Of a stretch of 49,854 bases of DNA, positions 1 to 24,374 are shown piece after piece. The DNA is from a virus (Duplodnaviria; Heunggongvirae; Uroviricota; Caudoviricetes): the IMG/VR virus record IMGVR_UViG_2529293239_000010, one strand, 5' to 3'. Each line of letters starts with the position of its first letter. The stretch's first letter is position 1. A program made the position numbers and the translations under genes. The notes under the pieces are model-generated. The model did not search any database, was not told where the DNA came from, and saw only the letters and a program-made list of their open reading frames with translations.

Positions 1-1131
1 TCAAATGACCAGTTTTTTCCATTCCTTACCGCGTGCGTCGTTGTAAATATCGGTCATTTTTTGATTCGAATGGCCTAGCAAAATTTTGGTATCAACCCCC
101 TGCTCTCTGAACAATCGCTCTGATAAAGATCTCTGCTCATGGAAAGAGGGAGGGGTGCCATTAGCACGCCAGTTGTAATCCACAGAATCCCGGGCTTTTT
201 TAAATGCAACGGTTAATGTTGCTGGCTTAACCATCCCGCCGCGCTTAGCTGTCCCTTTCGCGTGATGGTGGTGCAATAGCCACGGACTAAGAACGCAATC
301 GCGGCAGGATGACACCACATCATCCAGGGTGAGATTTAATTTATCGCAACGCAGAGCCAGAGGGATGGCAATCCGGGTTCCTGTTTTTTGCTGTTCGACA
401 TGAAGATAACCATCCCGGATATCCGAAAATTGCATTTTGCAAATATCTGAAAGGCGCTGGCCTGTCATCAGTGCCAGCAGCATACCGCGCTGTAAAAAGT
501 AACCATCCTTTTCCGCTGCGTTATAAATCATCATCCACTCATCAAAAGTCAGTCGCTGTCTTGATATCCGCACCTGCGGTTTTTTTGCCGATTCTGCAGG
601 GTTAAAGCCTGGCGGGACATCGCCCGTTTGCTGAGCTTCCCGGAAAACATCGATCAGTACTTTCCTGAAAATTTGTCCCATTCTGTTATGTCCTCTGGCC
701 TTGTACTCTTCCAGTACTGATACCACATCTTTTACGGTTATGGCATCTAACCGTCTGGTGCCAAAACGTTCATCAAATACCCTGAGAGGGGCCGCTTTCT
801 GTTTCAGCGTGTTGAGTTTGATCTCGCCGTTTTCATATCTTTCCTGTTGAATTTTTCTGTAATTATTCAGAAAAATGGTAACAGTTGATGAACCGCCGGT
901 ATCACTAATAATTTTCTCCTGCAGACTGAGCATTTGTTCCATTTGCTGCCGGGCAAGACGGCTGTTCGCTTCTGCTGCAATAGTTTCTGCCAGTTTCTGG
1001 TCAATACTGCCGAGACCGTGATTTTTGCCTGTTATGGGATGCCTGTAACGCCAGTAAACTTTGTTATTTCTTTTGTCAAAATACGGAGATAATCCCGGAA
1101 CATCGGTTTTATATTTTCGCGGGCGCGCCAT
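1..1131 (-). CDS. int: Phage integrase, tyrosine recombinase family
   Basis: 376-aa ORF with integrase-like N-terminus and C-terminal catalytic region (R...HxxR...Y context near LGHSNQKMTDIY); sits at the prophage edge next to an excisionase, as in lambdoid prophages. Its stop codon lies at window positions 1..3. Confidence 0.85.
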   Translation of the reverse strand: MARPRKYKTDVPGLSPYFDKRNNKVYWRYRHPITGKNHGLGSIDQKLAETIAAEANSRLARQQMEQMLSLQEKIISDTGGSSTVTIFLNNYRKIQQERYENGEIKLNTLKQKAAPLRVFDERFGTRRLDAITVKDVVSVLEEYKARGHNRMGQIFRKVLIDVFREAQQTGDVPPGFNPAESAKKPQVRISRQRLTFDEWMMIYNAAEKDGYFLQRGMLLALMTGQRLSDICKMQFSDIRDGYLHVEQQKTGTRIAIPLALRCDKLNLTLDDVVSSCRDCVLSPWLLHHHHAKGTAKRGGMVKPATLTVAFKKARDSVDYNWRANGTPPSFHEQRSLSERLFREQGVDTKILLGHSNQKMTDIYNDARGKEWKKLVI

Positions 1132-1357
1132 CTTCCAGTATCCTCTTCAAAGCAGGGTGATCTGTGGCGATCACCTCCGGCTTGTTTACCATTCCGACAA
1201 AGCGAGCTTGCGGATCCACTCGCCAGCGTCTTCCAACTTTTTTGGGGAGAGGAAATATCATTCCGGCTTTAGCGTATTTACTTAACGTACTCGGAGTAGG
1301 GACCGGTTCACTGAATTCCTCTTTTGCCCACTCAGTGAGCAGAATAAGTCTTGCCAT
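1109..1357 (-). CDS. xis: Excisionase-like small DNA-binding protein
   Basis: 82-aa ORF directly upstream of and overlapping int on the same strand; N-terminal LxLxEWAKEEF...TL.KYAKAG motif typical of lambdoid Xis proteins. Confidence 0.65.
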   Translation of the reverse strand: MARLILLTEWAKEEFSEPVPTPSTLSKYAKAGMIFPLPKKVGRRWRVDPQARFVGMVNKPEVIATDHPALKRILEDGAPAKI

Positions 1358-1421
1358 GAGCGTCGTTCGCTAATCATGGTCGCCGCCACTATAGCTGGTG
1401 GGCAACGACCGGGGTTGAACA

Positions 1422-3893
1422 TTAAAAATCAGCCTGATTCGGGATCAGTTTTTGCCAGATAACTGAAATGTATTTTGCCTGGTAACGGGCGTCATCAAGT
1501 GCATTATGGCGCTCACCTTCGAATGGAATAGCCGTTCTGGCATCGAAGTCTATGGCTTTCCCCAGCTCAACGATTGTGCGTACATCGCGATCGTTGTAGT
1601 AACGCCACGGGCAGGGGATCCCCTGCCGTTCGTATGAACGGCGCAAAATCGTGTTGTCGAAGTTGGCTCCATTTCCCCAGACCTGAACAAAAAATTCACC
1701 GGAGTTTTCGTCGATAAATTCCCGCAATTGTAACAGTGCATCATCTAACGGGATTTCATCGGTCATAATGGCAGACTGCGCTTCACGTGATTGCTTCAGC
1801 CACCTTTTAATGACGTCACGATCAATGACTCCGCCAGCAGTTTCCAGATCGATAGTCTTACTAAATTCCGGTCCCATATCTCCGGTTTGCGGATCGAAAA
1901 ATATTGCACCTATTGAGATAATCGGGGCATCAGGATTTTTTCCCATGGTTTCAAGGTCGATCATTAGATGGTCACACGTCCTGCTGGTGGATGTGATAAC
2001 GTGATGACCGTTCATCGCAATTAAGGGATCTGCCGTCTCGCCAGTTTCACTATCGCTGGCGTGATCCTGAGCGCTACCAGCATTCTCCTTGTGTGGATGT
2101 TCAGCGCCTTCCATTTCCTTCGGATCATTTTCCTGAACTTCAACCTGATTCTCTTCATCGAATGTTTCCTGGTATGTTGCGTCACCCATCACCGCGCCAC
2201 AATCAGGGCAGTTGCCGCCACCGCTTTGACCGCAGGCGGTGCAGACTTTTTCCGGTTCCTGTTGCGCTACTGGCTCAGGTTGTTTCGTTTCTGGCTCGTT
2301 TTGTTGCGTATTTGGGCTGTTTTGTTCCGCTTTCTGGTCGTTCTGTTCCGATTCTTGCTGGTTCTGGTTTACAGAATCGCGGGTTTCAATCCCCTTTACC
2401 CATTTCGGATCATTCGGGTCGCTAATCCCTGCAACAAATTCTCCGCGAGAGGCAGCAAGCAACTTATCGGCGTCAGGCTGGCTGATATTGGCTGCCTGCA
2501 TAATTTTGTTTACTTCGTCAGCGGTAACTTTTACCGGCTCTGGTTGTGCGGTCGTGTCAGATGCACCAGTATTTTGTTGTGAACCTGAGTACGTGCCGTT
2601 TTTACGTGCGAAGTATTCCTCTTTTGTGATTTCCGTAGCTCCCAAGGCTAGTGCTTTTTCCAGACCAGAAAGTTTGTTTGCGCGACCGTATTTTTCGCCA
2701 TCCTTGTCGGTGAAGAGGAAGTAGAACGGCCCCTCACGCTCTACAGATGGTTCGACTTCCACTTTGCATTCGGTTTTTTCGTTGCCCGGAATTGCCGTTT
2801 CCACTGCATCAGTTTCTGGTACTGGCGACGAGAGAGTATCAGTTGCGCTCTGATTTCTTCCTTCATCTTCAAACACGCCCTTTGTAGTCAGGTATTCAGT
2901 AATGTATTTGTTCAGTGCCACAGGGTCTTTGTGAATGTCGATCGGACGTTCACGGACAAGGCCAAAAATAGTCTGGCGGTCGTAGCGAAGGGCATCAGGC
3001 TGTTTGCGCATTGATGCCGAGATACGCTTCCAGTCTTCGCGGTCGTTGTCGATAACTTCATTTTTTGCCCAGCGATGGATGCTGCCGTCAATGTTTCCGG
3101 CATCCACATCACCAGGCCAGAGAGCGTAGGCCAGTTCGTCATCCAGTGTTTTCCATGTCTGCTTGTATTCGCGATGAATGGCAGCAATGACCGGGCTGAT
3201 TTTTCCTGTTGAATTTTCACTGTGCTGTTGATTGGTTCTGGCGCGGGCGAGATCAACAACAGACGTGTATTTTCCGGTTTCCTTGCGTTCACCTTCGCGA
3301 CGTTTTTTCCAGATGCGCATCTCTGCCTGAATTTCGGGCCATTTGGCACCAGGCTTACATTTATGCTTAACCCACCCGATGGCATGCAGCTTAAGCTCCG
3401 GATACATGGCGTTAACTTCTGGCATTTTCATCAACGCTTCAACGATATGTCCGTCGAATGTTGCCATGTCTTCCTGCAACAATTCCTGTGCGCTAATAAC
3501 CATATCAACGGTGATGTTTTCACATGTGTCGAACTTAACCATGACAGCGTTCTGTACTTCAGGGGCCAGCTTGTCAAAAGTGACGTTCATCGGATCTGAT
3601 TCAGTCTCAACCGGGACAAAGGAAGCAGACTCCTCATCCCAGCGGTTTTCCTGCATATATTCAGCATCCCAGGAATCGAGGGCAGGGCGGGGTATACCGG
3701 GTTTATCCTCGCAGACAAGAAATTTATAAGCGCAGTCCTGAGCAGCCGGATAATGTTCCAGGAATTGCCAGTGAAATTTTGCGCGGGCGCGACGTTCATC
3801 ACCGGCTTCAATGGCAGTGGCTACAGCGACGGCACCTTCTTCCTTTATTGCCTGTTCGTCCGGAATGGCGGCGCAAATAAAGACTTTACTCAT
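1422..3893 (-). CDS. Phage exonuclease, 823 aa, with C-terminal DEDDh (DnaQ-like) 3'-5' exonuclease domain and central CxxC...CxxC zinc ribbon
   Basis: C-terminal motifs DLETMG ... WGNGANFD ... HNALDDA fit the DEDDh exonuclease fold; CTACGQ...CPDCG zinc ribbon; Q/E/N-rich low-complexity linker encoded by imperfect tandem DNA repeats around 2240..2360. Confidence 0.8.
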   Translation of the reverse strand: MSKVFICAAIPDEQAIKEEGAVAVATAIEAGDERRARAKFHWQFLEHYPAAQDCAYKFLVCEDKPGIPRPALDSWDAEYMQENRWDEESASFVPVETESDPMNVTFDKLAPEVQNAVMVKFDTCENITVDMVISAQELLQEDMATFDGHIVEALMKMPEVNAMYPELKLHAIGWVKHKCKPGAKWPEIQAEMRIWKKRREGERKETGKYTSVVDLARARTNQQHSENSTGKISPVIAAIHREYKQTWKTLDDELAYALWPGDVDAGNIDGSIHRWAKNEVIDNDREDWKRISASMRKQPDALRYDRQTIFGLVRERPIDIHKDPVALNKYITEYLTTKGVFEDEGRNQSATDTLSSPVPETDAVETAIPGNEKTECKVEVEPSVEREGPFYFLFTDKDGEKYGRANKLSGLEKALALGATEITKEEYFARKNGTYSGSQQNTGASDTTAQPEPVKVTADEVNKIMQAANISQPDADKLLAASRGEFVAGISDPNDPKWVKGIETRDSVNQNQQESEQNDQKAEQNSPNTQQNEPETKQPEPVAQQEPEKVCTACGQSGGGNCPDCGAVMGDATYQETFDEENQVEVQENDPKEMEGAEHPHKENAGSAQDHASDSETGETADPLIAMNGHHVITSTSRTCDHLMIDLETMGKNPDAPIISIGAIFFDPQTGDMGPEFSKTIDLETAGGVIDRDVIKRWLKQSREAQSAIMTDEIPLDDALLQLREFIDENSGEFFVQVWGNGANFDNTILRRSYERQGIPCPWRYYNDRDVRTIVELGKAIDFDARTAIPFEGERHNALDDARYQAKYISVIWQKLIPNQADF

Positions 3894-3985
3894 TTTGTTT
3901 TACCTCATTACAGATTTAAGGGTGAACAAATCCCTGCCATTGCTGGCATATAAGAATGAAACCGGATATTTATTACGGAACTGTT

Positions 3986-4177
3986 TTAAAGACCTGCCGG
4001 GATTTCGTTATTATCCTGGTGAATAACTTTATCGACCGGGTAACAGTTACCGGGAATTTTCTGTTCGGTTGCTGCAGTCACACACTCCTGCATTGTCCTG
4101 TGAACACTGACTGCAATATCAACTGGCTCTCCGGAAACAAGAAAAACTGTCAGAACAAGTGCAAATGCTGTATTCAT
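3986..4177 (-). CDS. Small hydrophobic, signal-peptide-like protein of unknown function (about 63 aa)
   Basis: ORF with hydrophobic N-terminus (MNTAFALVLTVFLVSG); its ATG overlaps the stop of the upstream gene in an ATGA arrangement, suggesting translational coupling; AAGGA Shine-Dalgarno about 8 nt upstream. Confidence 0.35.
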   Translation of the reverse strand: MNTAFALVLTVFLVSGEPVDIAVSVHRTMQECVTAATEQKIPGNCYPVDKVIHQDNNEIPAGL

Positions 4178-4467
4178 TGCCAGCATCCTTTTTGTATCGG
4201 ACGTAAACGGGCCAGCATTGAAAGAATGCATATTTTATTTAATAGCTCCCGTTCGTGTTTTCTCTTGTTAATGGCATCTTCAGTAAATACAGGGTTACTG
4301 ATAGTGACACCAATTTCAAAACAACCTTCAGACGTATTAATGTTTGGTAATAACGTTTCCATTATCGCGTCCTCAACAATGAATTTTGTGATGCGGTGCC
4401 TGGTGCCTCCAGGTGACGTTAACCAGTTAACAATTAACGCCGGATACAGAGAATCCACCCATAACAC
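4174..4467 (-). CDS. Hypothetical protein in leftward early operon
   Basis: 97-aa ORF on the same strand as the early leftward genes; stop overlaps the start of the downstream small ORF. No recognisable motifs. Confidence 0.4.
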   Translation of the reverse strand: MLWVDSLYPALIVNWLTSPGGTRHRITKFIVEDAIMETLLPNINTSEGCFEIGVTISNPVFTEDAINKRKHERELLNKICILSMLARLRPIQKGCWQ

Positions 4468-4923
4468 TGTTTTTGGTTTTAACTGTTCCGCGTGCGCTCA
4501 GCCGCATTCACCACATCACAAAATTCACTTTAAAAAGGGCGGCAGAGCAGTCACGGAGTAAAACTGATACCGCCAAACGTCACCAGAAAATTGATAACAG
4601 AGGGCGTTGCAGCGGGGTTGTCACTTAAGCGTATGGTCAACCTGACAACTCGGTGTCCTCAACGGGGAAGGAATAACCCCGCCATACTTACCGCCGCGCC
4701 ATTTCGCGGATTGCCACAACCGGAAACGCACGGTCGACGAAAATTTAACGACAGGCTATCTATGAACCAGCTACCTCGCCGGGCGCTTTCGCGTTATGGT
4801 CTGACTTTTCAGGGAAATATCCTTTCAGTAAACTGTCAGTGCCGGATGCTCACCCGTGTCCGGCGCACGCACTCCACCTCACCCGTGGAGAACTCCTTAA
4901 TCACCAACCCTCAGGAGGGTGAA

Positions 4924-5199
4924 ATGTCGACTGAAAATGATGAAATCATTAACTCCCTGATACGCCAGATTAATAATTTTGATAAAGCATTGCAACATGC
5001 TGCGGCGCGTAGTGATATAACTCTTTTAGCAATTTCATTTCTTGCATCTGTTATGGATAAAAATGAAGTCGTACGACAGAGTCTTGTTGATTATATCGAC
5101 TCGCTTCAACCCGGCACTTTCAATCATGAGAGCTTCAATCATGAGAAAGAGCATGTTAAGTCTGTAATTAATTCTCTTATTTTGAATCAAAAGAATTAA
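4924..5199 (+). CDS. Hypothetical protein (about 91 aa) in AT-rich segment
   Basis: ATG at 4924 preceded by strong Shine-Dalgarno GGAGGGTGAA; the longer 202-aa ORF call upstream has no ribosome binding site. Convergent with, and overlapping, the 3' end of the minus-strand gene 5177..5509. Confidence 0.35.
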   Translation: MSTENDEIINSLIRQINNFDKALQHAAARSDITLLAISFLASVMDKNEVVRQSLVDYIDSLQPGTFNHESFNHEKEHVKSVINSLILNQKN

Positions 5200-5509
5200 T
5201 GCTTTTTGTTGCAAAGTAATTTTCAAGGGGTTCTATTCGAATCCCTTTCTTTTTCATTAACAAGCCAAACCCCTTATCAATGATGTCCATTAGATCCAGG
5301 AAGTATTTTTCATGTAAATCCTGGTTATCAGAGAGCTGCTTCTCTTCGTACAGCCCGATAAAGGCTCGGCGTACGTTACCGGATATATTGTCGATGGTTT
5401 CTTTTTCTACGGTACTCAGGTCAAGAGTCGCCAGTTGAGAGCGAACCACATTCGATGCCATTTCCTGGAATGGTACTGGTAAATCTTTAAATTCCATCGT
5501 CAACCTCAT
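5177..5509 (-). CDS. Hypothetical protein, second gene of PL-proximal operon
   Basis: 110-aa ORF whose start overlaps the stop of the upstream gene (5509); AT-rich; no recognisable family. Confidence 0.45.
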   Translation of the reverse strand: MRLTMEFKDLPVPFQEMASNVVRSQLATLDLSTVEKETIDNISGNVRRAFIGLYEEKQLSDNQDLHEKYFLDLMDIIDKGFGLLMKKKGIRIEPLENYFATKSINSFDSK

Positions 5510-5742
5510 CAGTCAGTGTTTCTGGTTAACCAGCGACGCGCGCCAGCTTCAGTTTTAAACGTTTTGCTTCTGGTATACGTCATCGCGGTGAACGTACCGT
5601 CCTGGTTGGGGAACACGCCACATACCAGAGATTCGCTGTTGCCAAGCTCGATAGTATCCATGCTGACCTCATTTCCCCTTAACGCCGGGGTAGCGGAACA
5701 AAAACCTGCTGCATAGTTATTAAAGTTGAACCCTGCCGTCAT
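5509..5742 (-). CDS. Hypothetical protein, first gene downstream of PL
   Basis: 77-aa ORF about 100 bp downstream of a strong leftward promoter; occupies the position of N in lambda but has no arginine-rich N-terminus. Confidence 0.45.
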   Translation of the reverse strand: MTAGFNFNNYAAGFCSATPALRGNEVSMDTIELGNSESLVCGVFPNQDGTFTAMTYTRSKTFKTEAGARRWLTRNTD

Positions 5743-5841
5743 GTTCTTACGCCTCGGGCTGGCTACTTAACCCCTGACCACTGCCTGGTAACTCGAGGTA
5801 TTGCCCTGTATTGTGTGGGACGGGATGGGTTGGTATGGGAA

Positions 5842-5870
5842 AACTATAGGAAATGCCTAATTACTTGTCA
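5842..5870 (-). promoter_or_regulatory. PL-like leftward early promoter with overlapping operator
   Basis: On the minus strand, TTGACA - 17 bp - TATAGT; overlaps the palindromic operator AATAGGCTATGCCTAAT (5869..5885) and further CCTAAT half-sites. Confidence 0.55.
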
Positions 5871-5979
5871 ATAGGCTATGCCTAATAATTTGGGCGCAAC
5901 CTAATAGGTGATGGTTTGTGGGAGAGGTAGTAGGAGTTAACTAACGGGAACTAGGAATTTCCCGTCGGACCATATAAGT

Positions 5980-6456
5980 TTAAGTTCCTGTCTTGGTGAT
6001 GTTCTGGCTTTTCCGTTTTGATTCTTGATTTTTCAGATAGTTAGCTACCTTCATTTCCATTGCGGCAATGTAGGCGCGAACGTCATAATCAACCCAACTA
6101 GGCTCCGTAGCATTTCCAGATAAGATGAAAGCCACAATTGCTTTTTTTTCATCAGAGGCGGCTTGATAAAGGCTGTTTATGTCTAAAAGTTCACTTTTTG
6201 TATCTGAAGTGGATGGGGTTGGTATGGGGTATTCGTTAAGCCCCCAATGCTCTGGACCAACCACATCAGAAAAGAAACGCCATAGTTCTGGAAGTTTGTC
6301 TTTACTTATCGAACCTTTCTTAATCCAGTCATGGATTGATGGTGGTTGGACTTTGAAATGACGTGCGATTTCCGCCTTTGATTTGACGGCTCCTGATGCA
6401 ATTTTTTTGTTAATGGCCTGCTCTATCGCTCGGCCTAAGTCTTTACCACTAAGCAT
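5980..6456 (-). CDS. Prophage repressor, RacR-like (HTH, no S24 peptidase domain)
   Basis: 158-aa ORF divergent from a cro-like gene and flanked on both sides by copies of the same palindromic operator; HTH-like segment KSKAEIARHFKVQPPSIHDWIKKG. Confidence 0.75.
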   Translation of the reverse strand: MLSGKDLGRAIEQAINKKIASGAVKSKAEIARHFKVQPPSIHDWIKKGSISKDKLPELWRFFSDVVGPEHWGLNEYPIPTPSTSDTKSELLDINSLYQAASDEKKAIVAFILSGNATEPSWVDYDVRAYIAAMEMKVANYLKNQESKRKSQNITKTGT

Positions 6457-6508
6457 TGCTTAATAGTCTCCTATGCGCATCGCGTTAGGCAATCCCTACT
6501 CTCGATGT

Positions 6509-6553
6509 ATTAGGCATAGCCTATTGACAATTTCATTAGGCTAAGCCTAATAT
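6509..6553 (+). promoter_or_regulatory. OR operators with PR-like rightward promoter
   Basis: TTGACA (6525..6530) - 17 bp - TAATAT (6548..6553); operator palindromes ATTAGGCATAGCCTATT (6509..6525) and ATTAGGCTAAGCCTAAT (6535..6551) overlap -35 and -10; a third partial site lies near 6483..6499. Confidence 0.6.
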
Positions 6554-6580
6554 TGTTGCGTGTTTTTTGGAGTTCATTCG

Positions 6581-6904
6581 ATGAAAAAAGATAACTATTC
6601 ATTCAAACGAGCTTGTGCTGTTGTCGGTGGGCAATCAGCAATGGCTAGGCTTTTAGGTGTATCTCCTCCAAGCGTAAATCAATGGATCAAAGGTGTACGT
6701 CAGTTACCTGCTGAGAGATGTCCTGCGATTGAACGAGCAACAAAAGGTGGTGTCCTGTGTGAAGAACTTCGTCCTGATGTTGATTGGACATACTTACGAC
6801 GCTCGTCATGTTATTCGCAGAATATGTCGATGAAGCAACCAAATGACGAAAACGATCATACCCGAAGCATCAAGAGGCAAATGATTCATGAAAATCAAAC
6901 ATGA
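6581..6904 (+). CDS. Cro/YdaS-like HTH regulator
   Basis: Starts at ATG 6581 after GGAG; HTH segment QSAMARLLGVSPPSVNQWIKG; divergent from the repressor across the operator region. Confidence 0.65.
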   Translation: MKKDNYSFKRACAVVGGQSAMARLLGVSPPSVNQWIKGVRQLPAERCPAIERATKGGVLCEELRPDVDWTYLRRSSCYSQNMSMKQPNDENDHTRSIKRQMIHENQT

Positions 6905-7313
6905 GCACATCCGCATGGCGATGAATGCCTGGGCATACCCTGATGGTGAGAAAGTTCCTGCAGCTGAAATAGCCCGGACTTATTTCGAACTGGGGATGAC
7001 GTTCCCTGAACTGTACGACGACAGCCATCCGGAAGCCCTGGCCCGTAATACCCAGAAAATTTTCCGTTGGCTGGATAAAGACCCCCCTGATGCTGTTGAA
7101 AAAATGCAGGCTCTGTTACCGGCGATCGAAAAGGCGATGCCGCCTTTGCTGGTGGCCCGTATGCGCAGCCACAGTTCTGAATATTACCGTGAGATCGTCG
7201 AACGGAGGGATCGGCTGGTGAAGGATGTCGATGATTTTGTTGCGTCAGCGGTTGTTTTGTATGACCAGATGAATCGCGGCGGCCCGGCAGGGAATGCTGT
7301 GGTGATGCACTAA
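6888..7313 (+). CDS. YdaT-like protein (Rac-type immunity region partner)
   Basis: 141-aa ORF immediately after the cro-like gene, starting MKIKHEHIRMAMN; size and position match ydaT of the Rac racR-ydaS-ydaT locus. Confidence 0.55.
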   Translation: MKIKHEHIRMAMNAWAYPDGEKVPAAEIARTYFELGMTFPELYDDSHPEALARNTQKIFRWLDKDPPDAVEKMQALLPAIEKAMPPLLVARMRSHSSEYYREIVERRDRLVKDVDDFVASAVVLYDQMNRGGPAGNAVVMH

Positions 7314-7335
7314 AAGCACGGTGTTCGGGGGTTTT

Positions 7336-8298
7336 ATGAGCAGCAAGCTTCATGGTCTTGTCTGGGAAGGGTGCGCCTTCACCGGCATGATCTTATCCAG
7401 GGTGGCGGTTATGGCCCGTCTTGCAGACTACAGCAATGACGAGGGCGTGTCATGGCCTGCCATTGAAACTATCCGGCGTCAGATCGGTGCAAGAAGTGAA
7501 TCCACAGTGAAATCGGCTATTGCAGAACTGGCGAAAGAGGGCTGGCTGACGAAGGAAGAGCGTAAGGTCGGTGGGCGTAATGTAAGCAATATCTATCGGC
7601 TTAATGTGGAAAAACTCGAAGCAGCTGCGGCGGCGGCGCGTGAGTCATATAAACCGAAAAGAAAAATTAGCCCGGCAAAAAATGACCCGTTAACAGTTGA
7701 CCCGTCAAATATTGACCCCTCAACGGTTGACCCGTCAAATTTTGATGGATCAACTGTTGATAAAAAACTGCCGATTAGGGGGGCGATGATTGACCCCGAT
7801 CCGTCAGTATTAAAACCTGATCCGTCAGATAAAAGATCTTCTTGTCCGGACGCTTCGCAACCGGACCCGCAGACGGCTGAACAGGATTTTTTAACCCGAC
7901 ACCCTGACGCGGTTGTGTTCAGTGCGAAAAAACGCCAGTGGGGAAGTCAGGAAGATTTGGTGTGCGCACAGTGGATCTGGGGACGAATCGTGAGTCTTTA
8001 CGAGCAGGCGGCCAGCTATGATGGCGAGATCACTAGACCGAAAGAACCCAACTGGACAGCATGGGCCAATGACGTTCGCACAATGCGGATGCTGGATGGC
8101 AGAACTCACAGACAAATTTGTGAAATGTTTGGGCGTCTCCAGCGGGATTCGTTCTGGGTAAAAAACATCATGAGTCCGGCAAAACTCCGGGAAAAATGGG
8201 ATGAACTGGTTATCCGCCTGGGGCGTTCGCCTGCGCAGCGTTGTGTGAATCACATTTCTGAACCGGACACTGAAATACCGCCGGGATTCAGGGGGTGA
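7336..8298 (+). CDS. Replication initiation protein (lambda O-like role) with internal iterons
   Basis: N-terminal winged-helix-like region; gene contains five 15-bp iteron-like repeats that encode DPSNIDPSTVDPSNFD; followed directly by a DnaC-like gene. Confidence 0.7.
   Translation: MSSKLHGLVWEGCAFTGMILSRVAVMARLADYSNDEGVSWPAIETIRRQIGARSESTVKSAIAELAKEGWLTKEERKVGGRNVSNIYRLNVEKLEAAAAAARESYKPKRKISPAKNDPLTVDPSNIDPSTVDPSNFDGSTVDKKLPIRGAMIDPDPSVLKPDPSDKRSSCPDASQPDPQTAEQDFLTRHPDAVVFSAKKRQWGSQEDLVCAQWIWGRIVSLYEQAASYDGEITRPKEPNWTAWANDVRTMRMLDGRTHRQICEMFGRLQRDSFWVKNIMSPAKLREKWDELVIRLGRSPAQRCVNHISEPDTEIPPGFRG
7682..7760. repeat. Iteron array, probable phage replication origin
   Basis: Five tandem 15-bp repeats, consensus TTGACCCGTCAANNN, embedded in the replication initiator gene, as lambda ori lies within O. 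Confidence 0.55.
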
Positions 8299-8304
8299 CG
8301 TGTC

Positions 8305-17108: not shown

Positions 17109-18962
17109 ATGGCATTTAAACACTATGACGTGGTCAGGGCGGCATCGCCGTCAGACCTTGCGAAACAACTGACACAAAAACTGAAGGAGGGCTGGCAGCC
17201 GTTTGGTAGTCCGGTGGCCATAACCCCTTATACCCTGATGCAGGCGATTGCAGCAGAAGGTGATGTGGTCGTCAGTGGTGCAACTGAGCCGGAGTGGTAC
17301 TACGTCATCGTACTGGCCGGGCAATCCAATGCCATGGCTTACGGTGAAGGGCTTCCGCTTCCGGATTCATACGATGCGCCCCATCCGCGCATTAAGCAAC
17401 TGGCCCGTCGTAACACAGTGACTCCCGGTGGTGAAGTATGCGTATTTAACGACATCATTCCTGCTGACCATTGTCTGCATGATGTTCAGGATATGAGTAC
17501 GATTAACCATCCCCGGGCTGACCTGAGCAAAGGGCAGTACGGCTGTGTCGGACAGGGCTTACATATTGCCAAAAAACTGCTTCCGTATATCCCTAATAAT
17601 GCGGGGATCCTGCTGGTACCATGCTGTCGTGGTGGTTCGGCATTCACCCAGGGCACGGAGGGGACATTCAGCGAGTCCACGGGAGCCAGTCAGGATTCGG
17701 CTCGCTGGGGAGTGGGTAAGCCGTTATATCAGGATCTGCTTTTCCGCACGAAGGCAGCATTGCAGAAAAACCCGAAAAACGTTTTGCTGGCGATATGCTG
17801 GATGCAGGGGGAATTCGATATGACGAATGCCAGTTACGCCCAGCAGCCAGCAGCATTTCTTGCAATGGTACAGCAGTTCCGTGCTGACCTTGCCGGGCTG
17901 GCAGCGCAGTGTCACGGTGGAAGTCCGGCATCAGTCCCCTGGATTTGTGGCGACACGACATACGCGTGGAAACAAGAACACGGTACGCAATATGAAGTGG
18001 TATATGGTGCATATAAAGGTAAAGAATCCCAGCAGATTTATTTTGTTCCCTTTATGACCGATGGTAGCGGAGTTAATACACCGACAAACAACCCGTCAGA
18101 AGATCCTGATATTGCCGGGTCTGGTTATTACGGTTCGGCATCCCGAACGAACAAAAACTGGGTATCATCAAATCGCCCGACGCATTTCAGCTCATGGGCG
18201 CGTCGTGGCATTATTCCCGATCGTATGGCAACTGCTATTCTGAACGTAGCCGGTCGCACCTTAGCCTTCATTAGTGGTAAGGCACCGGAAATCAAACCCT
18301 CGCCCGGCGGCGACACGCCATCGGGGCCGTCTGAAGATGCATCCGTACGCACAATCTCCCTGTTGCCGACAGCCGGAGATGCTGCTGCGCAGGGCTGGAG
18401 CATTAAGAATGGCGGAATTCAGTTGTCAGATGGTGTATTTAAGATCACCAAGCAGAGCAATAAAGCCTGGTCCCTGACGCGCCCGGTGGATGACGCAGTC
18501 TCCCTGCTGACACGGGGTGGCAGACTGAGCTGTAAGTTTCGACTGTCAGGCGCACTGACCAACAACCAGTTCGGTCTGGGAATTTATCTGTATACCGATG
18601 TAGCGTTACCTGACGTCGTGGCGATGACCGGGACTGGTAACCCGTTCCTGATGTCGTTCTTCACCCAGACCACAGACGGCAAACTGAATCTGATGCATCA
18701 CAAGAAAGCCGGAAACACAAAGTTGGGCGAGTTCGGGAATTACAGTAACGACTGGCAGACGCTGGAGCTGGTGTTCACCGCCGGCAGTGCCACGGTTACT
18801 CCGAAACTGAATGGAGTGGCTGGCCCGGCATTCCAGGTCATAAAAGACAGTCTGACAGTGGGACTAAATGCACTGACGCTGACGGATATTACCAAAAATG
18901 CAACGTATGGCGTTGAGATAGAAAGTCTGGTGCTGGAGATAAATGCACCGGCATCATCATAA
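17109..18962 (+). CDS. NanS-p-like sialate O-acetylesterase (SGNH/DUF303 hydrolase)
   Basis: 617-aa ORF with [14 protein letters not shown]-hydrolase motif after an N-terminal domain; strong Shine-Dalgarno GGGAGGA; occupies the position downstream of the tRNA cluster as in Stx-type phages. Confidence 0.7.
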
Positions 18963-19111
18963 AAAGTGAGCCAGTCAAATGGAAGGTATCGTTAAACTCA
19001 CCGGTAGTGTCAGTGGGTCGTCTGAGACGCCTGCATGAGTTATCAGAGCCATCAGTACTTAACTGGTGGCTTTTTTATTGTTGTCAGCTTCCGGATAACG
19101 GGAGACGGGGT

Positions 19112-19327
19112 ATGTACCAGATGGAAAAAATCACAACAGGTGTGTCATACACCACGTCAGCGGTGGGAACGGGCTACTGGTTCCTGCAGTTGCTGGACAG
19201 GGTTTCCCCGTCTCAGTGGGCGGCAATAGGCGTGCTGGGGAGTCTGCTGTTTGGGCTGCTGACATATCTGACTAACCTGTATTTCAAAATCAGAGAGGAC
19301 CGTCGTAAGGCTGCACGGGGAGAGTAA
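19112..19327 (+). CDS. Holin with dual-start motif
   Basis: 71-aa product [10 protein letters not shown]... with two hydrophobic segments and charged C-terminus; Met1 and Met4 give a lambda-S-like dual start; directly upstream of the lysis genes. Confidence 0.75.
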
Positions 19328-19331
19328 TTCA

Positions 19332-19682
19332 ATGACTCAAAACTATAAACTGATTGTGAAAGGGATCCGCAATTTTGAGAATAAAGTTACGGTAACTTTA
19401 GCGTTACGGGACAAAAAACGCTTTGACGGTGAAATTTTTGACCTGGACATCTCGCTGGACCGTGTTGAAGGTGCCGCGCTGGAGTTTTATGAGGCAGCAG
19501 CCAGAAGGAGCATCAGACAGGTCTTCCTGGATGTTGCTGCCGGGTTATGTGAAGGGGATGAGCAGTCGCCGGAAAAGCGCCCCGTAATTTTAGAGGCGCA
19601 GAATGTATGGATAACCTACAAAGGAAAGCTACCGGGAAGAATTACTGGTTCTCTGAAGACTCCTCCGGAATCACAACCTTAA
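19332..19682 (+). CDS. Hypothetical protein between holin and endolysin
   Basis: 116-aa ORF tightly packed between holin and endolysin on the same strand; no recognisable motif. Confidence 0.5.
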   Translation: MTQNYKLIVKGIRNFENKVTVTLALRDKKRFDGEIFDLDISLDRVEGAALEFYEAAARRSIRQVFLDVAAGLCEGDEQSPEKRPVILEAQNVWITYKGKLPGRITGSLKTPPESQP

Positions 19683-19745
19683 GTCACTGACCGGAACAGA
19701 TAAACCTGTCCGTGGGCAGAAACCGATAAATCCTGATAAATATCC

Positions 19746-20279
19746 ATGAACGCAAAAATCAGATACGGCCTGTCGGCTGCCGTTCTGGCGCTGATTGCCG
19801 CTGGTGCGCCTGCGCCTGACATTCTCGACCAGTTTCTGGATGAAAAGGAAGGTAACCACACCACGGCATACCGTGATGGCGCGGGTATCTGGACCATCTG
19901 CCGCGGTGCCATCCTGGTGGATGGCAAACCTGTCGTTCCGGGCATGAAGTTGTCGAAGGAAAAATGCGACCGGGTTAACGCCATTGAGCGTGATAAGGCG
20001 CTGGCATGGGTGGAGAAAAACATCAGAGTGCCATTGAGTGAACCCCAGAAAGCGGGGATCGCGTCATTCTGTCCGTACAACATTGGCCCCGGTAAGTGTT
20101 TTCCGTCGACGTTTTATAAACGAATTAATGCAGGTGATCGCAGGGGAGCGTGTGAGGCGATTCGCTGGTGGATTAAGGACGGTGGCAGAGACTGCCGTAT
20201 TCGCTCAAACAACTGTTACGGTCAGGTATCCCGTCGCGACCAGGAGAGTGCGCTGGCGTGCTGGGGAATTGACAGATAA
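19746..20279 (+). CDS. SAR endolysin (phage lysozyme, T4-lysozyme-like fold)
   Basis: N-terminal hydrophobic signal-arrest-release segment LSAAVLALIAAGAPA followed by lysozyme catalytic region E...D...T (EGNHTTAYRDGAGIWTICRG). Confidence 0.85.
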   Translation: MNAKIRYGLSAAVLALIAAGAPAPDILDQFLDEKEGNHTTAYRDGAGIWTICRGAILVDGKPVVPGMKLSKEKCDRVNAIERDKALAWVEKNIRVPLSEPQKAGIASFCPYNIGPGKCFPSTFYKRINAGDRRGACEAIRWWIKDGGRDCRIRSNNCYGQVSRRDQESALACWGIDR

Positions 20280-20370
20280 GCAGAATATTTTGCTGAAAAA
20301 TGCGGTTTGCTCACACGGACGGATAACACGAAATCCTGCGAACTGACAAAAACTAAGAGAATAAAAGTAA

Positions 20371-20404
20371 AAACCCCGTTTGTTGGCTGCAAGCGGGGTT
20401 TTGT
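20371..20404 (+). terminator. Hairpin terminator after the endolysin
   Basis: AAACCCCG...CGGGGTTT inverted repeat followed by a T-rich tract. Confidence 0.45.
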
Positions 20405-20477
20405 GTTTCCTGACTCCGGAAAAGTCAAAGGAGAAAGTGTGTTTGATTTTAGCAAACTGATTCGGGAGATTCGAGTG

Positions 20478-20576
20478 ATGGCTGAAAAATTATCCACCTG
20501 GAAGTTCATTCTTATCTGGCTGGTGTTTGTGATTATGGCCTCCGGTTATTTCATCGGTCAGATACGCTGGTGGTGA
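20478..20576 (+). CDS. Very small single-pass membrane protein (32 aa) upstream of Rz
   Basis: MAEKLSTWKFILIWLVFVIMASGYFIGQIRWW is one transmembrane helix; GGGAG about 10 nt upstream; stop is 1 nt before the Rz ATG. An alternative GTG start lies at 20449. Confidence 0.3.
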   Translation: MAEKLSTWKFILIWLVFVIMASGYFIGQIRWW

Positions 20577-20577
20577 A

Positions 20578-21015
20578 ATGAACCGCGTACTGTGCGTGGT
20601 CATCATTGCCCTGCTGGTGGCCTGTGGTGCGCTTAGTCTGGGGCTGAATCATTACCGTGATAACGCCATAACCTACAAAGAGCAGCGCGATAAAGCCACA
20701 TCCACAATCGCTGATATGCAGAAGCGTCAACGTGACGTAGCAGAACTCGATGCCAGATATACAAAGGAGCTTGCTGATGCTAACGCGACTATCGAAAGCC
20801 TCCGTGCTGATGTTTCTGCTGGGCGTAAGCGCCTGCAAGTCGCCGCTACCTGTGCAAAGTCAACGACCGGAGCCAGCGGCATGGGCAATGGAGAAAGCCC
20901 AAGACTTACAGCAGATGCTGAACTCAATTATTACCGTCTCCGAAGTGGAATCGACAAGATAACCGCGCAGGTCAACTACCTGCAGGAGTACATCAGGACG
21001 CAGTGCTTAAAATAA
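20578..21015 (+). CDS. Rz: Rz i-spanin
   Basis: 145-aa ORF with N-terminal transmembrane anchor and coiled-coil-like periplasmic domain; contains an embedded +1-frame lipoprotein gene. Confidence 0.8.
   Translation: MNRVLCVVIIALLVACGALSLGLNHYRDNAITYKEQRDKATSTIADMQKRQRDVAELDARYTKELADANATIESLRADVSAGRKRLQVAATCAKSTTGASGMGNGESPRLTADAELNYYRLRSGIDKITAQVNYLQEYIRTQCLK
20777..20962 (+). CDS. Rz1: Rz1 o-spanin lipoprotein, embedded in Rz in the +1 frame
   Basis: AAGGAG Shine-Dalgarno 7 nt upstream of ATG 20777; signal peptide with lipobox LLGVSAC; proline-rich mature part. Confidence 0.7.
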   Translation: MLTRLSKASVLMFLLGVSACKSPLPVQSQRPEPAAWAMEKAQDLQQMLNSIITVSEVESTR

Positions 21016-21052
21016 TTTTAATTTCACTGAAATTTAATACGTGACTTTCAGG

Positions 21053-21081
21053 AAAATGCCTCGCAGATGCGGGGCATTTTT
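21053..21081 (+). terminator. Hairpin terminator after the lysis cassette
   Basis: ATGCCTCGC...GCGGGGCAT stem followed by TTTTT. Confidence 0.45.
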
Positions 21082-21405
21082 GTACAGGTATTTCACCGCG
21101 CACCGCAGTGCACTCAACCACGTCGAACCAAACCCTTTGGAATGAGCCTTTGAGTAGTCAGTTAGTGCTGGTGAGCCTTGACGGGCTGATCTCCTATGCA
21201 GCAAAGGTTCATCTCAAAGTAAGGCGAACGCTATGACAAACCAAGATTCTATAGACCTATCTGATCTTCGTGGAATGGTCAGTTTTCCAGACAAAAGGTA
21301 ATCACCATAGTCGTATGGCTATGAATCTTGTTGCTGCAGATAAGCATTTTGTGAACCGCCCCGGGAATCCTGGAGACTAAACTCCCTGAGAAAGAGGTAA
21401 ACAGG

Positions 21406-21732
21406 ATGACTAAAAATACTCGTTTTTCCCCCGAAGTCCGTCAGAGGGCGATTCGTATGGTTCTGGAAAGTCAGGGCGAATATGACTCACAGTGGGCGGC
21501 AATTTGTTCCATTGCCCCAAAGATTGGCTGTACACCGGAGACTCTGCGTGTCTGGGTACGCCAGCATGAGCGGGATACCGGAGGCGGTGATGGCGGGCTC
21601 ACCACCGCTGAACGTCAGCGTCTGAAAGAGCTGGAACGTGAAAATCGTGAACTGCGCCGCAGTAACGATATCCTTCGCCAGGCTTCCGCTTATTTTGCGA
21701 AGGCGGAGTTCGACCGCCTCTGGAAAAAGTGA
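21406..21732 (+). CDS. IS629 transposase OrfA (HTH)
   Basis: 108-aa [24 protein letters not shown]... with leucine-zipper-like C-terminus, typical IS3-family OrfA. Confidence 0.85.
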
Positions 21733-22619
21733 TGCCACTGCTGGATAAGCTGCGTAAGCTGTACGGGGTCGGACCGGTATGCAGTGAACTACATATTGCC
21801 CCGTCAACGTATTACCACTGTCAGCAACAGCGACATCATCCTGATAAACGCAGTGCCCGTGCGCAGCGCGATGACTGGCTGAAGAAAGAGATACTGCGCG
21901 TATACGATGGGAATCATCAGGTATACGGTGTGCGTAAAGTCTGGCGTCAGTTGTTACGGGAAGGTATCAGAGTGGCCAGATGCACTGTGGCACGTCTCAT
22001 GGCGGTTATGGGACTTGCCGGTGTTCTCCGGGGTAAAAAGGTCCGTACGACCATCAGCCGGAAAGCCGTTGCCGCAGGCGACCGCGTAAACCGTCAGTTC
22101 GTGGCAGAACGACCTGACCAGCTGTGGGTGGCTGATTTTACTTACGTCAGCACATGGCAGGGCTTCGTCTATGTGGCGTTCATTATTGATGTGTTTGCCG
22201 GATACATCGTGGGGTGGCGGGTCTCATCGTCCATGGAAACGACATTCGTGCTGGATGCTCTGGAGCAGGCGTTATGGGCCCGTCGACCGTCCGGCACGGT
22301 CCATCACAGTGATAAAGGTTCTCAGTATGTATCGCTGGCCTACACACAGCGGCTTAAGGAAGCCGGATTACTGGCATCAACAGGAAGTACAGGCGACTCG
22401 TATGACAACGCGATGGCGGAGAGCATCAATGGTCTTTACAAAGCGGAGGTAATACACCGTAAGAGCTGGAAAAACCGTGCAGAAGTGGAACTGGCCACAC
22501 TCACGTGGGTGGACTGGTATAATAATCGACGATTGCTGGAAAGGCTGGGCCACATCCCTCCGGCAGAAGCAGAAAAAGCTTATTATGCTTCCATCGGAAA
22601 CGATGATCTGGCAGCCTGA
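21729..22619 (+). CDS. IS629 transposase OrfB (DDE catalytic domain), normally made as an OrfAB fusion by -1 frameshift
   Basis: 296-aa ORF overlapping orfA in the -1 frame; DDE integrase-core region (WVADFTYV..., HSDKGSQY..., [10 protein letters not shown]). Confidence 0.85.
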
Positions 22620-22744
22620 GTTCACAGATAAAACACTCTCCAGGAAACCCGGGGCGGTTCATTGTGATTGAAGTGGTCAAATCTCTCAAATGCAGTAAAA
22701 TGCAGTGCGCTATAATTCAATAACGGAGGGAGTAAGGAGAAGTC

Positions 22745-23365
22745 ATGAAAGATCAAGATGTTAGGTTCGCGGTGCATCATAAGCTTTTGAAAGAATCGCA
22801 TTTAGATCCAGACTGCCTTGTGGTCGATGAATTTTCCATATCCCTTGGCGCCAGTAGAGCAGACATTGCTGTAATAAATGGTGTTATACACGGGTACGAG
22901 CTCAAAAGTGAATATGACTCTTTGGAGCGTTTGCCTCTTCAAATCAAGCATTATTCTTCTGTAATGGACAAGGTTACTCTTGTCGTAGCTGAGAAACATC
23001 TTGAGGGAGCATTAAAGTTAATCCCAGGTTGGTGGGGCGTTAAAACGGTTTCTGTTGGGCCAAAAGGCGCCATTCTTATAAAGCACATGCGTGGAGAAAA
23101 GCTTAATCGAAACCATGACACATTGATGCTCGCTCAATTGCTTTGGAAAGATGAATGTATCGACGTACTTGAACGATGGGGCTATTCCAAAGGAATCAAA
23201 AGCAAGCCCCGATTTGAGTTATGGAATATTATTGCGGAAAATATTCCAATAGCGAATCTCAGGCTTGAAGTCAGAACAGCCTTAAAGAAACGCGTAGGCT
23301 GGAAAGTTAAGGCTTGGCAGGCTGAGTCTGCGCCAACCAATAAAGCTGTCTCACGACTAACGTAA
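22745..23365 (+). CDS. Cargo protein A (206 aa), unknown function, with PD-(D/E)xK-like nuclease motif
   Basis: Strong Shine-Dalgarno GGAGGGAGTAAGGAG and TATAAT box upstream; motif VVDEF...RADIAVINGVIHGYELKSE fits a restriction-endonuclease-like D...ExK core; AT-rich relative to flanking phage DNA. Confidence 0.6.
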   Translation: MKDQDVRFAVHHKLLKESHLDPDCLVVDEFSISLGASRADIAVINGVIHGYELKSEYDSLERLPLQIKHYSSVMDKVTLVVAEKHLEGALKLIPGWWGVKTVSVGPKGAILIKHMRGEKLNRNHDTLMLAQLLWKDECIDVLERWGYSKGIKSKPRFELWNIIAENIPIANLRLEVRTALKKRVGWKVKAWQAESAPTNKAVSRLT

Positions 23366-24374
23366 TATGGTGCGTATGTGCAACTTTACGCCATTCTTTA
23401 GAGCCGCCAGATTTGTTAGCGCCTAATGATCTTTGGTAAATGTAATCATCCCCCCAACTAAATTTGGAACCAAAGACTTGATACTCTGGCGAACTAACAA
23501 GGGTAGTACATAAGTTTTTAGTTTGGCCCCATCCATTTCCTTTAACTGCGGTACCTTTTACAAAGATCCATGAGGTATCGTTCGAATATCTCACTGAGAC
23601 ATACTGAGACATGAAGCGTGGGTCTACGCTCGTAATGGTAGAGCTAGCGGTGGGATAATCACTAAAACTTGGCGTTCTTCCATTGCTAAAATTCTGTACT
23701 ACGTACATCCAAAGATCGTATTCATGGCGCGGAATATGATGAACTTGATGTTGCGGTATCCCTGCCTGTGATGCTGGGTATGCGGTTGAAGATAAAATCA
23801 AGTTTCTCCACGGAGCTTGGCCTGATAATGTGTTGACCATGCTTAATGCTTGTTGTTTTAAACTATCAGTTGCGTTTTGAATATCTCCAAAATCAATGAT
23901 TACATCAATTAAACTAGGATGAATATTTAAGTGGTTAACCAGACTTGTGAATTGGTGCCATGTCTGGGGGGTGATAGATATAGCGAGCCCATTGATTAAG
24001 TTGCGTTGAACAGCATGTATATAGTTTGTTGAATATGCGGGAGAAACAACAGGGATAATTTCCTTACCATTTACTCTAGCATCTTGGATACACATATCTA
24101 GAGGATGATGGCGGCTCGAACCATGTTTATCTAAATATTTAACATCCAGCAAAACAGGACGATTGGCTTTCCAGGATGCCGCAAGGTTAATACCGAAGTC
24201 AGATAAGTAAGAACTCAAACTCTTCTTGTAGCATTCGTTTTCATAATCCCAGTCTATGTCTGGAATGGTAATGATCGGAGTAAAACCAGAGAGCGTAGTT
24301 TGATCTAAAAGCATCAGAGATTCATATTCAGCAGGCTTCCATTTCAGCTGTGGATAATATTGATGTTGACTCAT
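23307..24374 (-). CDS. Cargo protein B (355 aa), unknown function, convergent partner of cargo protein A
   Basis: AAGGAG Shine-Dalgarno upstream of the ATG at 24374; 3' end overlaps that of gene A by 59 bp; AT-rich; no motif I can assign. Confidence 0.6.
   Translation of the reverse strand: MSQHQYYPQLKWKPAEYESLMLLDQTTLSGFTPIITIPDIDWDYENECYKKSLSSYLSDFGINLAASWKANRPVLLDVKYLDKHGSSRHHPLDMCIQDARVNGKEIIPVVSPAYSTNYIHAVQRNLINGLAISITPQTWHQFTSLVNHLNIHPSLIDVIIDFGDIQNATDSLKQQALSMVNTLSGQAPWRNLILSSTAYPASQAGIPQHQVHHIPRHEYDLWMYVVQNFSNGRTPSFSDYPTASSTITSVDPRFMSQYVSVRYSNDTSWIFVKGTAVKGNGWGQTKNLCTTLVSSPEYQVFGSKFSWGDDYIYQRSLGANKSGGSKEWRKVAHTHHITLVVRQLYWLAQTQPAKP

Follow-up and report, generated by a model that had tools for sequence, protein, structure and literature searches.

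The closest described systems to the gene reported here are RecE of the Rac prophage of Escherichia coli K-12, YdfE of the Qin prophage, and the T4 exonuclease DexA with its E. coli homologue EcD. The gene lies in the IMG/VR virus record IMGVR_UViG_2529293239_000010, the whole of which (49,854 nucleotides) is referred to below as the window, and it encodes a protein of 823 amino acids (aa). In RecE the nuclease domain alone suffices for recombination, and the role of the N-terminal ~600 residues has been open since; the crystallised nuclease domain begins at residue 606 (PDB 3H4R). YdfE of K-12 is a truncated remnant of 306 aa without a tail, and is not known to have a function. A 2023 review reports that full-length RecE improves linear-linear recombination (PMC11611040). 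The structure of T4 DexA (8KEL) is described in PMC12153337, where it is also reported that EcD digests T4 DNA containing 5-hydroxymethylcytosine (5hmC), and not unmodified double-stranded DNA, and protects cells from T4 ('HREX').

The 823-aa gene is carried by a lambdoid prophage, of the Rac/Qin type, that sits at ompW. The leftward genes of the prophage are ordered int, xis, the exonuclease gene, DUF1482, dicB, DicF, small open reading frames (ORFs) and a racR-like repressor, with the rightward early and late genes after them. The gene thus has the same position as recE in Rac, as the final early-left gene before xis-int, and its product has a homologous mid domain, a Q/E linker, a zinc motif and an acidic segment. 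The two differ in several respects: the nuclease is of the DEDDh type (predicted 3'-5') here and of the PD-(D/E)xK type (5'-3') in RecE, recT, lar and rcbA are absent downstream here, and the head is YdfE_N-like here and PF06630 in RecE. The first ~300 aa fall in the same Pfam families as YdfE (YdfE_N and YdfE_C), although this membership is silent on mechanism because YdfE is without known function. DexA and EcD belong to the same DEDDh subfamily (PF16473) and have the same catalytic residues, but they are stand-alone proteins of 189-227 aa, whereas here the domain is the tail of a much longer protein. With somewhat better than even confidence, we read the gene as encoding a RecE-family protein in which the nuclease, together with recT-lar-rcbA, has been replaced by a DexA/EcD-like DEDDh nuclease, and which processes ends for host RecBCD-Chi-RecA recombination.

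The 823-aa protein and its tail

The ORF is intact on the minus strand, with its ATG at 3893 and its stop at 1422, and its product is 100% identical to WP_000048527.1 of E. coli 2017C-4173W12, which is named 'exonuclease' by the NCBI Prokaryotic Genome Annotation Pipeline (PGAP). The family has already been catalogued, as PHROG 2082 and in PGAP as '3'-5' exonuclease'; our literature search found no paper on an 823-aa RecE-like DEDDh protein. The features of the gene that carry the comparison are as follows.

1422-3893, minus strand: 823-aa ORF, RecE-family scaffold fused to a predicted DEDDh exonuclease (WP_000048527.1)
3903-3906, minus strand: GAGG Shine-Dalgarno sequence, 10-13 nt 5' of the ATG, from the upstream sequence
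1455-1970, minus strand: predicted DEDDh 3'-5' exonuclease domain, aa 642-813, from the Pfam match, with D646, E648, D746, H796 and D801
2016-2474, minus strand: segment aa 474-626 (linker, zinc motif, acidic tail), ~85% identical to RecE 454-592 by BLASTP
2016-2024, no strand: cassette-swap breakpoint at ~aa 625, where DNA homology to a recE-recT-type locus (L004) ends at 2020

A preliminary description of the window had assigned the C-terminus to a DEDDh exonuclease and not to the PD-(D/E)xK fold, and this assignment is borne out. Pfam family PF16473 (Rv2179c-like) matches aa 642-813 with an expectation value (E) of 9.4e-63 and 211.5 bits against a cut-off of 27, over profile positions 2-177 of 177, and all five catalytic residues of the ExoI, ExoII and ExoIII motifs are kept. 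The Pfam scan found no PD-(D/E)xK domain (PF12684) in the protein, and tblastn with RecE 600-866 gave no match anywhere in the window. In an alignment the same five residues are kept by eight of nine distant tails, and also by T4 DexA and a phage homologue of the stand-alone type. By sequence the protein clearly belongs to the DEDDh Rv2179c-like family. One 752-aa family member, P0355, has a lysine at the equivalent of E648 and an alanine at the equivalent of D746, and its DEDDh tail is probably catalytically dead.

The region preceding this domain belongs with RecE. In BLASTP comparison, aa 262-626 align to Rac RecE 278-592 (E 3e-63), the zinc motif and the acidic segment included, and the alignment stops ~15 residues before the start of the crystallised RecE nuclease domain. 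The NCBIfam equivalog for exonuclease VIII (PRK09709) scores 282.7 bits against a cut-off of 1269, with only aa 246-626 matching. Membership of RecE/exonuclease VIII proper thus fails on the nuclease domain, on the equivalog score and on the recT partner, and the non-catalytic region is shared. The preliminary description holds for the domains it listed; it missed the relationship to RecE, from which the zinc motif and linker are inherited.

Most close homologues are 823-831 aa long with the Pfam architecture YdfE_N, YdfE_C and Rv2179c-like. A minority, of 900 aa, share 94-97% identity over aa 1-635 and have PF12684 at the C-terminus; on their contigs recT, lar, DUF1187 (rcbA), xis and int lie downstream of the gene. 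At the DNA level, blastn shows the window to be 96.7% identical to the recE-recT-type locus L004 from upstream of dicB to position 2020, and unrelated beyond. The existence of such twins with a PD-(D/E)xK domain and recT, together with the end of DNA homology at 2020, indicates a cassette exchange in which PD-(D/E)xK, recT, lar and rcbA stand against DEDDh. On these alignments the 823-aa protein is a RecE-family member with its tail swapped at about aa 625.

The exchanged tail is common. The 594 bp coding for DEDDh occur in 4094 of 5426 complete E. coli genomes (75%), at 8167 places and up to seven times per genome, and the PD-(D/E)xK plus recT segment occurs in 1750 of the same genomes at 1841 places; counted by places, the DEDDh tail outnumbers the recE-recT tail more than four-fold, and the DEDDh-tailed version is the majority form of the gene in E. 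coli. Viable phages carry it as well (mEp460, Evi, Tritos, HannyBb and PhiR42_1). The preliminary description had called the recombination module atypical; the missing annealase is real (see below), but for a tail this widespread, and present in viable phages, the word is misleading.

Compared with four relatives, the ratio of non-synonymous to synonymous substitution rates (dN/dS) is 0.17-0.20 for the gene as a whole and stays under 0.5 in each segment, from which the whole gene is judged to be under purifying selection, with the predicted DEDDh active site intact. The synonymous rate itself differs about ten-fold between segments of 1422-3893 (head ~0.39, DEDDh tail 0.03-0.09), which points to intragenic mosaicism through repeated recombination inside the gene. 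We give almost no credence to the view that the gene is a functionless leftover of an illegitimate recombination that deleted recT. Signs of prophage decay, namely a split DnaC-like gene and an insertion sequence (IS), would suit that view, but the ORF is intact in thousands of genomes and present in viable phages, its dN/dS is low, its catalytic residues are conserved, and DEDDh tails occur on both head types of the family, in 12 clusters at 50% identity.

Tails and partner genes across the family

An exhaustive HMMER search of 1.84 billion proteins with aa 1-344 recovered only 175 clusters at 50% identity. Architectures were compared in a census of 66 long representatives at 50% identity, using single-sequence phmmer queries. 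The census contains two head types, YdfE_N-like and PF06630 (Exonuc_VIII), one shared mid domain, and three kinds of tail: PD-(D/E)xK in 14 representatives, DEDDh in 12, and a third tail without a Pfam match in ~20. All head-by-tail combinations are present, and the gene context goes with the tail and not with the head.

PD-(D/E)xK tail: then recT, in 4 of 4 lineages
Predicted Rad52-fold tail: then Sipho_Gp157, in 4 of 4 lineages
DEDDh tail: then xis/int directly, no partner, in 5 of 5 lineages (<50% identity) and in phage mEp460

The third tail was modelled from a Klebsiella prophage protein with an alignment of 22 family sequences, and its folded part has a predicted local distance difference test score (pLDDT) of 80-96. 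The nine best Foldseek matches of the model are all to the human RAD52 N-terminal domain (E 7.6e-7 to 2.2e-6, probability 1.0). The tail has a conserved KKSLTDAxKKALSxLGF motif and a sub-threshold match to Pfam Rad52_Rad22 (E 0.09); since neither Pfam nor a profile search of PDB sequences gave a significant match, it was identified through fold comparison only. In the model the third tail is a Rad52-fold annealase with no nuclease. The members that have it, such as gp07 of Pectobacterium phage ZF40 and a 710-aa Klebsiella prophage protein (PHROG 2489), resemble the 823-aa protein in having a homologous head and mid region, with 24-29% identity over aa 11-343, and in their early-left position before xis-int. 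They differ in the tail, which is a predicted Rad52-fold annealase with a long coiled coil, followed by a Sipho_Gp157 gene. A three-way exchange of tails on one common scaffold, with a Rad52-type annealase among the fused tails, is not described in the literature we found.

Two such genes, at L087:3974-6106 (OM816834.1) and L088:3974-6139 (Pectobacterium phage ZF40 gp07), are annotated 'hypothetical' or 'exonuclease' (PHROG 2489/7838). Their products have the predicted C-terminal Rad52-fold domain and a long coiled coil and are without a nuclease domain; judged from the model, 'exonuclease' is probably the wrong annotation for proteins of this type. The 710-aa protein of L087 (Stenotrophomonas phage vB_SmeS_BUCT708, OM816834.1) is 100% identical to a Klebsiella pneumoniae protein found on 87 contigs, and the stated Stenotrophomonas host is doubtful because all close relatives come from Klebsiella.

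The absence of an annealase beside the 823-aa gene, also claimed in the preliminary description, applies to the entire window. The exonuclease stop at 1422 is only 64 bp from the excisionase start at 1357, and the genes that follow are these.

1109-1357, minus strand: excisionase, directly downstream of the exonuclease gene, leaving no room for recT
1-1131, minus strand: integrase (prophage at ompW)

Tblastn across the whole 49.9 kb with RecT, Bet, Erf, Sak4, a Rad52-like protein, Gam, Abc1/2, lambda Exo, phage single-stranded DNA-binding proteins (SSBs) and Gp157 gave nothing at E<=0.05. No annealase appeared in PHROG scans of the early ORFs or in the PGAP annotation of a 99%-identical early region. 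This annotation is that of NZ_CP030768, which has the exonuclease gene at 100% identity, and it was used for the 99%-identical early region only: the window is a mosaic that matches NZ_CP030768 through the early region only, diverging after ~7.7 kb, and the best complete genome covers at most 87% of window 4000-24000. Among 80 IMG/VR loci of close relatives no annealase was found either.

A variant explanation, which we regard as highly improbable, is that an annealase is hidden within the N-terminal 625 aa or a small neighbouring ORF, which would make the locus an ordinary exonuclease-annealase pair. It draws on the Rad52-fold annealase of related proteins, which Pfam does not recognise (E 0.09); the family thus does include cryptic annealases. 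However, the Klebsiella Rad52-type tail has no tblastn match in the window, the neighbouring ORFs (62-110 aa) are assigned to unrelated PHROGs, and a 3'-5' exonuclease would not make the 3' tails used by known phage annealases. The checks that the preliminary description had proposed, of domains and structure in the N-terminal region and of the neighbouring small ORFs, were run, and neither the region nor the neighbouring genes contain a recognisable annealase domain.

Chi sites, nearest relatives and the proposed role

The window contains 14 Chi sites (GCTGGTGG) against 2.27 ± 1.38 expected, a ~six-fold excess that none of 100 shuffles reached. They span 1394-20620, all within the first 20.6 kb; 12 lie in the interval from the O-like replication gene to the terminase genes, and the late half has none. 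About half of lambdoid phages are reported to be without recombinases and to rely on host RecBCD, with Chi enrichment (Bobay et al., PMC3784561). The Chi pattern of this prophage is the one reported for such phages, whose frequency is a further point against calling the module atypical. Genes for the RecBCD inhibitors Gam and Abc were not found in the window prophage, and a RusA resolvase gene is present in the 99%-identical early region. Of the Chi sites, one (1983-1990) falls within the DEDDh-coding segment and another (1394-1401) between the exonuclease gene and xis.

Expression was considered from a consensus promoter scan, in which the following upstream features are relevant.

3986-4362, minus strand: DUF1482 and dicB, upstream neighbours, placed in the operon on gene order
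5843-5871, minus strand: best sigma-70-like leftward promoter, TTGACA-17-TATAGT, 11/12 match, just downstream of racR

The site at 5843-5871 is the probable early-left promoter of an operon ending exo-xis-int, and the scan found no promoter-like site between DUF1482 and the exonuclease gene. Together with an upstream stretch of 2.6 kb that recE-recT loci share, this suggests that the gene would be expressed on induction and not in the lysogen.

Among solved structures, the only match by sequence was the 3'-5' exodeoxyribonuclease DexA of T4 (8KEL, E 6e-4); Rv2179c itself did not reach E<=0.1 in this search. This bears on the idea that the protein is an exoribonuclease acting on RNA in phage development (turnover of mRNA or small RNA, or nanoRNA) in the manner of Rv2179c. 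The name of the Pfam family comes from an exoribonuclease, many database relatives are called '3'-5' exoribonuclease', and the gene shares its operon with the small RNA DicF; nonetheless we think it very unlikely, as the one structural match is a DNA exonuclease, the nearest tested homologue, EcD, is a DNase (PMC12153337), and the scaffold and its alternative tails belong to DNA-recombination proteins.

For comparison with EcD, an EcD-like prophage ORF of 189 aa was recovered via the published primer; it has the MIDTET start and Ala78 reported for EcD, and is 37% identical to aa 644-816 (E 1e-35). The forward 17-mer occurs in 26 IMG/VR loci, of which 7 encode an EcD-like protein and the others are chance matches. 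The 23-nt reverse primer has no match in IMG/VR and, as printed, is one A off the recovered gene, which we infer to be that of HAK9828821.1. An EcD-like gene is found at L119:5679-6248 on the minus strand (IMGVR_UViG_2579778812_000023), among the early genes of a prophage, with small ORFs and a gene for a DNA methyltransferase as neighbours. EcD itself is therefore taken to be prophage-borne, the probable EcD gene sitting in a prophage early region.

EcD is the basis of the main competing explanation, that the 823-aa protein is an HREX-type prophage defence nuclease that digests modified DNA (e.g. 5hmC) of superinfecting T-even-like phages, with the scaffold anchoring or regulating it. In its favour are the digestion of T4 DNA and protection of cells by EcD (PMC12153337), the 37% identity of the EcD-like ORF, and the abundance of the tail in E. 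coli, often in multiple copies, which fits a benefit to the host. The equivalent of the 5hmC-recognising W152 of DexA is Tyr766 here, though Trp in mEpX2 and most tails, and the D169 region cannot be aligned; the equivalent of DexA D90 is Asp718 here, and is Ala in EcD, where the loss of this tetramer-forming Asp goes with activity on hmC DNA only. With Tyr766 in place of Trp and Asp718 retained, the hmC specificity of EcD cannot be transferred. A defence gene would also be expected to be expressed in the lysogen, whereas this one is last in a repressed early-left operon, has no promoter-like site of its own and shares its upstream 2.6 kb at 96.7% identity with recE-recT loci. PADLOC yields a weak generic DEDDh match (E 1.5e-5), and the tails that replace DEDDh on this scaffold are those of recombination proteins. 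By sequence the protein resembles DexA/EcD, and we regard a defence role of the HREX type as unlikely.

The domain is found as a stand-alone phage gene in 711 of 50,697 records. The closest copies, from temperate coliphages, are 52-58% identical to aa 640-820; one of these stand-alone enterobacterial-phage exonucleases (PHROG 255/14078), gp32 of mEpX2, has a homologous domain with 56% identity, and differs, as they all do, in not being fused to a RecE scaffold. In mEpX2 it belongs to an early-left recombination module with a Rad52-like annealase, an SSB and Abc2, where it is flanked by the genes for the last two, a context to which we give little weight because three other phages differ (see below).

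In the reading that we favour, end processing for the host recombination pathway, transcription of the gene would start at the early-left promoter upon induction, as for recE in Rac, and the scaffold would tether the DEDDh nuclease to a partner or a DNA structure. The DEDDh domain would remove nucleotides from DNA 3' ends by two-metal-ion hydrolysis, the established DEDDh chemistry. In this way intermediates of phage replication and recombination would lose their 3' tails or flaps. RecBCD requires ends that are blunt or nearly so. The trimmed ends would then enter host RecBCD-Chi-RecA recombination, with RusA resolving the junctions, and this would replace phage single-strand annealing. For a Chi-rich phage without an annealase, trimming 3' tails for RecBCD-Chi-RecA appears the most economical role.

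Several points weigh against this account. Substrate, polarity and biological role are all read from homology, and the blunting of ends for RecBCD from the general substrate preference of that enzyme. EcD, the only functionally tested close relative, acts in anti-phage defence and not in recombination (PMC12153337), and the stand-alone DEDDh genes of PhiR40_1, YDC107_1 and Enc34 lie in unrelated contexts with no annealase neighbour. The rule relating tails to partners rests on 13 lineages and their close relatives, and the operon assignment on the consensus promoter scan. The predicted fold of the scaffold has no match among solved structures, and the 2023 review treats the RecE N-terminal region as a domain of unknown function (PMC11611040).

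Several other features of the prophage were observed. The DnaC-like helicase-loader gene is split into overlapping plus-strand ORFs at 8305-8817 and 8796-9047, with matches to positions 290-426 and 437-519 of the PHROG_50 profile; NZ_CP030768 has, in its 99%-identical region, a single intact 248-aa DnaC-like gene, so the split is probably a frameshift and this copy of the prophage may be replication-defective. IS3-family transposase ORFs (PHROG 151/157) lie at 21406-22619 (plus strand), between the Rz spanin gene and the packaging genes. Between the IS element and the terminase genes are two low-GC (~0.42) cargo ORFs, at 22745-23365 (plus strand) and 23307-24374 (minus strand), with PADLOC matches to 'cll' (E 4e-31) and PD-Lambda-2_C (E 4e-32), and this pair may be a defence island next to cos. 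The DicF RNA is at 4537-4588 (minus strand), adjoining dicB; sok antisense RNA with hokD is at 11188-11363 (plus strand); and three phage tRNA genes (Met/CAT, Arg/TCG and Arg/TCT) are at 15884-16133 (plus strand), downstream of a DNA methyltransferase gene.

The scaffold, its repeat linker and wider meaning

The N-terminal region (aa 1-470) was modelled with AlphaFold2 from 54 diverse sequences (model m82ba9294a5ef), with a mean pLDDT of 75. The model predicts four folded domains with disordered linkers between them; both this model and that of the third tail have disordered parts and modest predicted template modelling scores. The predicted domains and the motifs that follow them are listed here.

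3594-3893, minus strand: head domain D1, aa 1-100, alpha/beta, part of Pfam YdfE_N (AlphaFold2 pLDDT 81-90)
3279-3581, minus strand: head domain D2, aa 105-205, five-helix bundle (AlphaFold2 pLDDT 81-92)
2874-3161, minus strand: helical 'mid' domain D3, aa 245-340 (AlphaFold2 model; dN/dS 0.11)
2598-2732, minus strand: small beta-beta-alpha-beta-alpha domain D4, aa 388-432 (AlphaFold2), absent from K-12 RecE
2260-2366, minus strand: imperfect 21-bp tandem repeats encoding the Q/E/N-rich linker of 7-aa repeats, aa ~510-545 (Tandem Repeats Finder and unit-step length variants)
2199-2243, minus strand: CxxC-x7-CxxC zinc-ribbon-like motif (C551, C554, C562, C565)

The mid domain D3 is common to nearly all members of the family, including RecE (278-360). 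The Pfam assignments to YdfE_N (PF27430) and YdfE_C (PF27432) come from precomputed matches on proteins 91-99% identical to the 823-aa protein.

A zinc ribbon and a low-complexity Q/E-rich linker encoded by imperfect tandem DNA repeats had both been described from the sequence, and both are present, the former as a motif. The motif reads C551-x2-C554-x7-C562-x2-C565; it is kept in 118 of 120 close homologues and in K-12 (Rac) RecE, and not in distant representatives, and the Pfam DZR match to this putative zinc motif is weak (E 0.11). Tandem Repeats Finder reports a period of 21 at 2260-2366, with 2.3-3.7 copies, 74-77% matches and scores of 54-76.

The linker had further been proposed as a hotspot for recombination or slippage, with a comparison of repeat number across relatives as the check. 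Measured from PKWVKG to the first CxxC, it is 49 aa long in ~93% of clusters at 90% identity. Where the length is 35, 42 or 56 aa, the difference is always a whole number of 7-aa units, and different units have been duplicated on three independent occasions; a single variant of 17 aa is a deletion, and the linker of K-12 RecE is two 7-aa units shorter than that of the 823-aa protein. The exact steps indicate that repeat slippage is real, and its restriction to ~7% of clusters that it is infrequent, so that the hotspot is only a mild one. A hypervariable, contingency-type repeat was considered and rejected, given the predominance of the modal length.

The DEDDh-tailed gene is catalogued and very common, and as a sequence it is unsurprising; its interest lies in the question of the RecE N-terminal region (PMC11611040). 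That the same scaffold occurs with nucleases of opposite polarity, and a homologous one with an annealase, each with fixed partners, narrows the role of the scaffold to one that does not depend on catalytic chemistry, such as targeting, tethering or regulation. A broader idea, which we hold tentatively and consider more doubtful than probable, is that the N-terminal two-thirds of RecE-family proteins are a general delivery platform for interchangeable DNA-end effectors, with the DEDDh form representing an undescribed annealase-independent pathway. If so, the effectors would be a 5'-3' nuclease with RecT, a 3'-5' DEDDh nuclease alone, and a Rad52-type annealase with Gp157. The DEDDh form would then either ready phage ends for host RecBCD-Chi-RecA or exclude rival phages as a scaffold-targeted, HREX-like nuclease.

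Natural tail-swap variants are available for testing the role of the scaffold. For annotation, it is misleading to call DEDDh-tailed proteins 'exodeoxyribonuclease VIII' or Rad52-tailed ones 'exonuclease'. With the DEDDh form in three-quarters of complete E. coli genomes, its action on DNA ends, or on the DNA of infecting phages, could affect prophage induction, recombination between prophages (including Shiga toxin phages) and resistance to phages.

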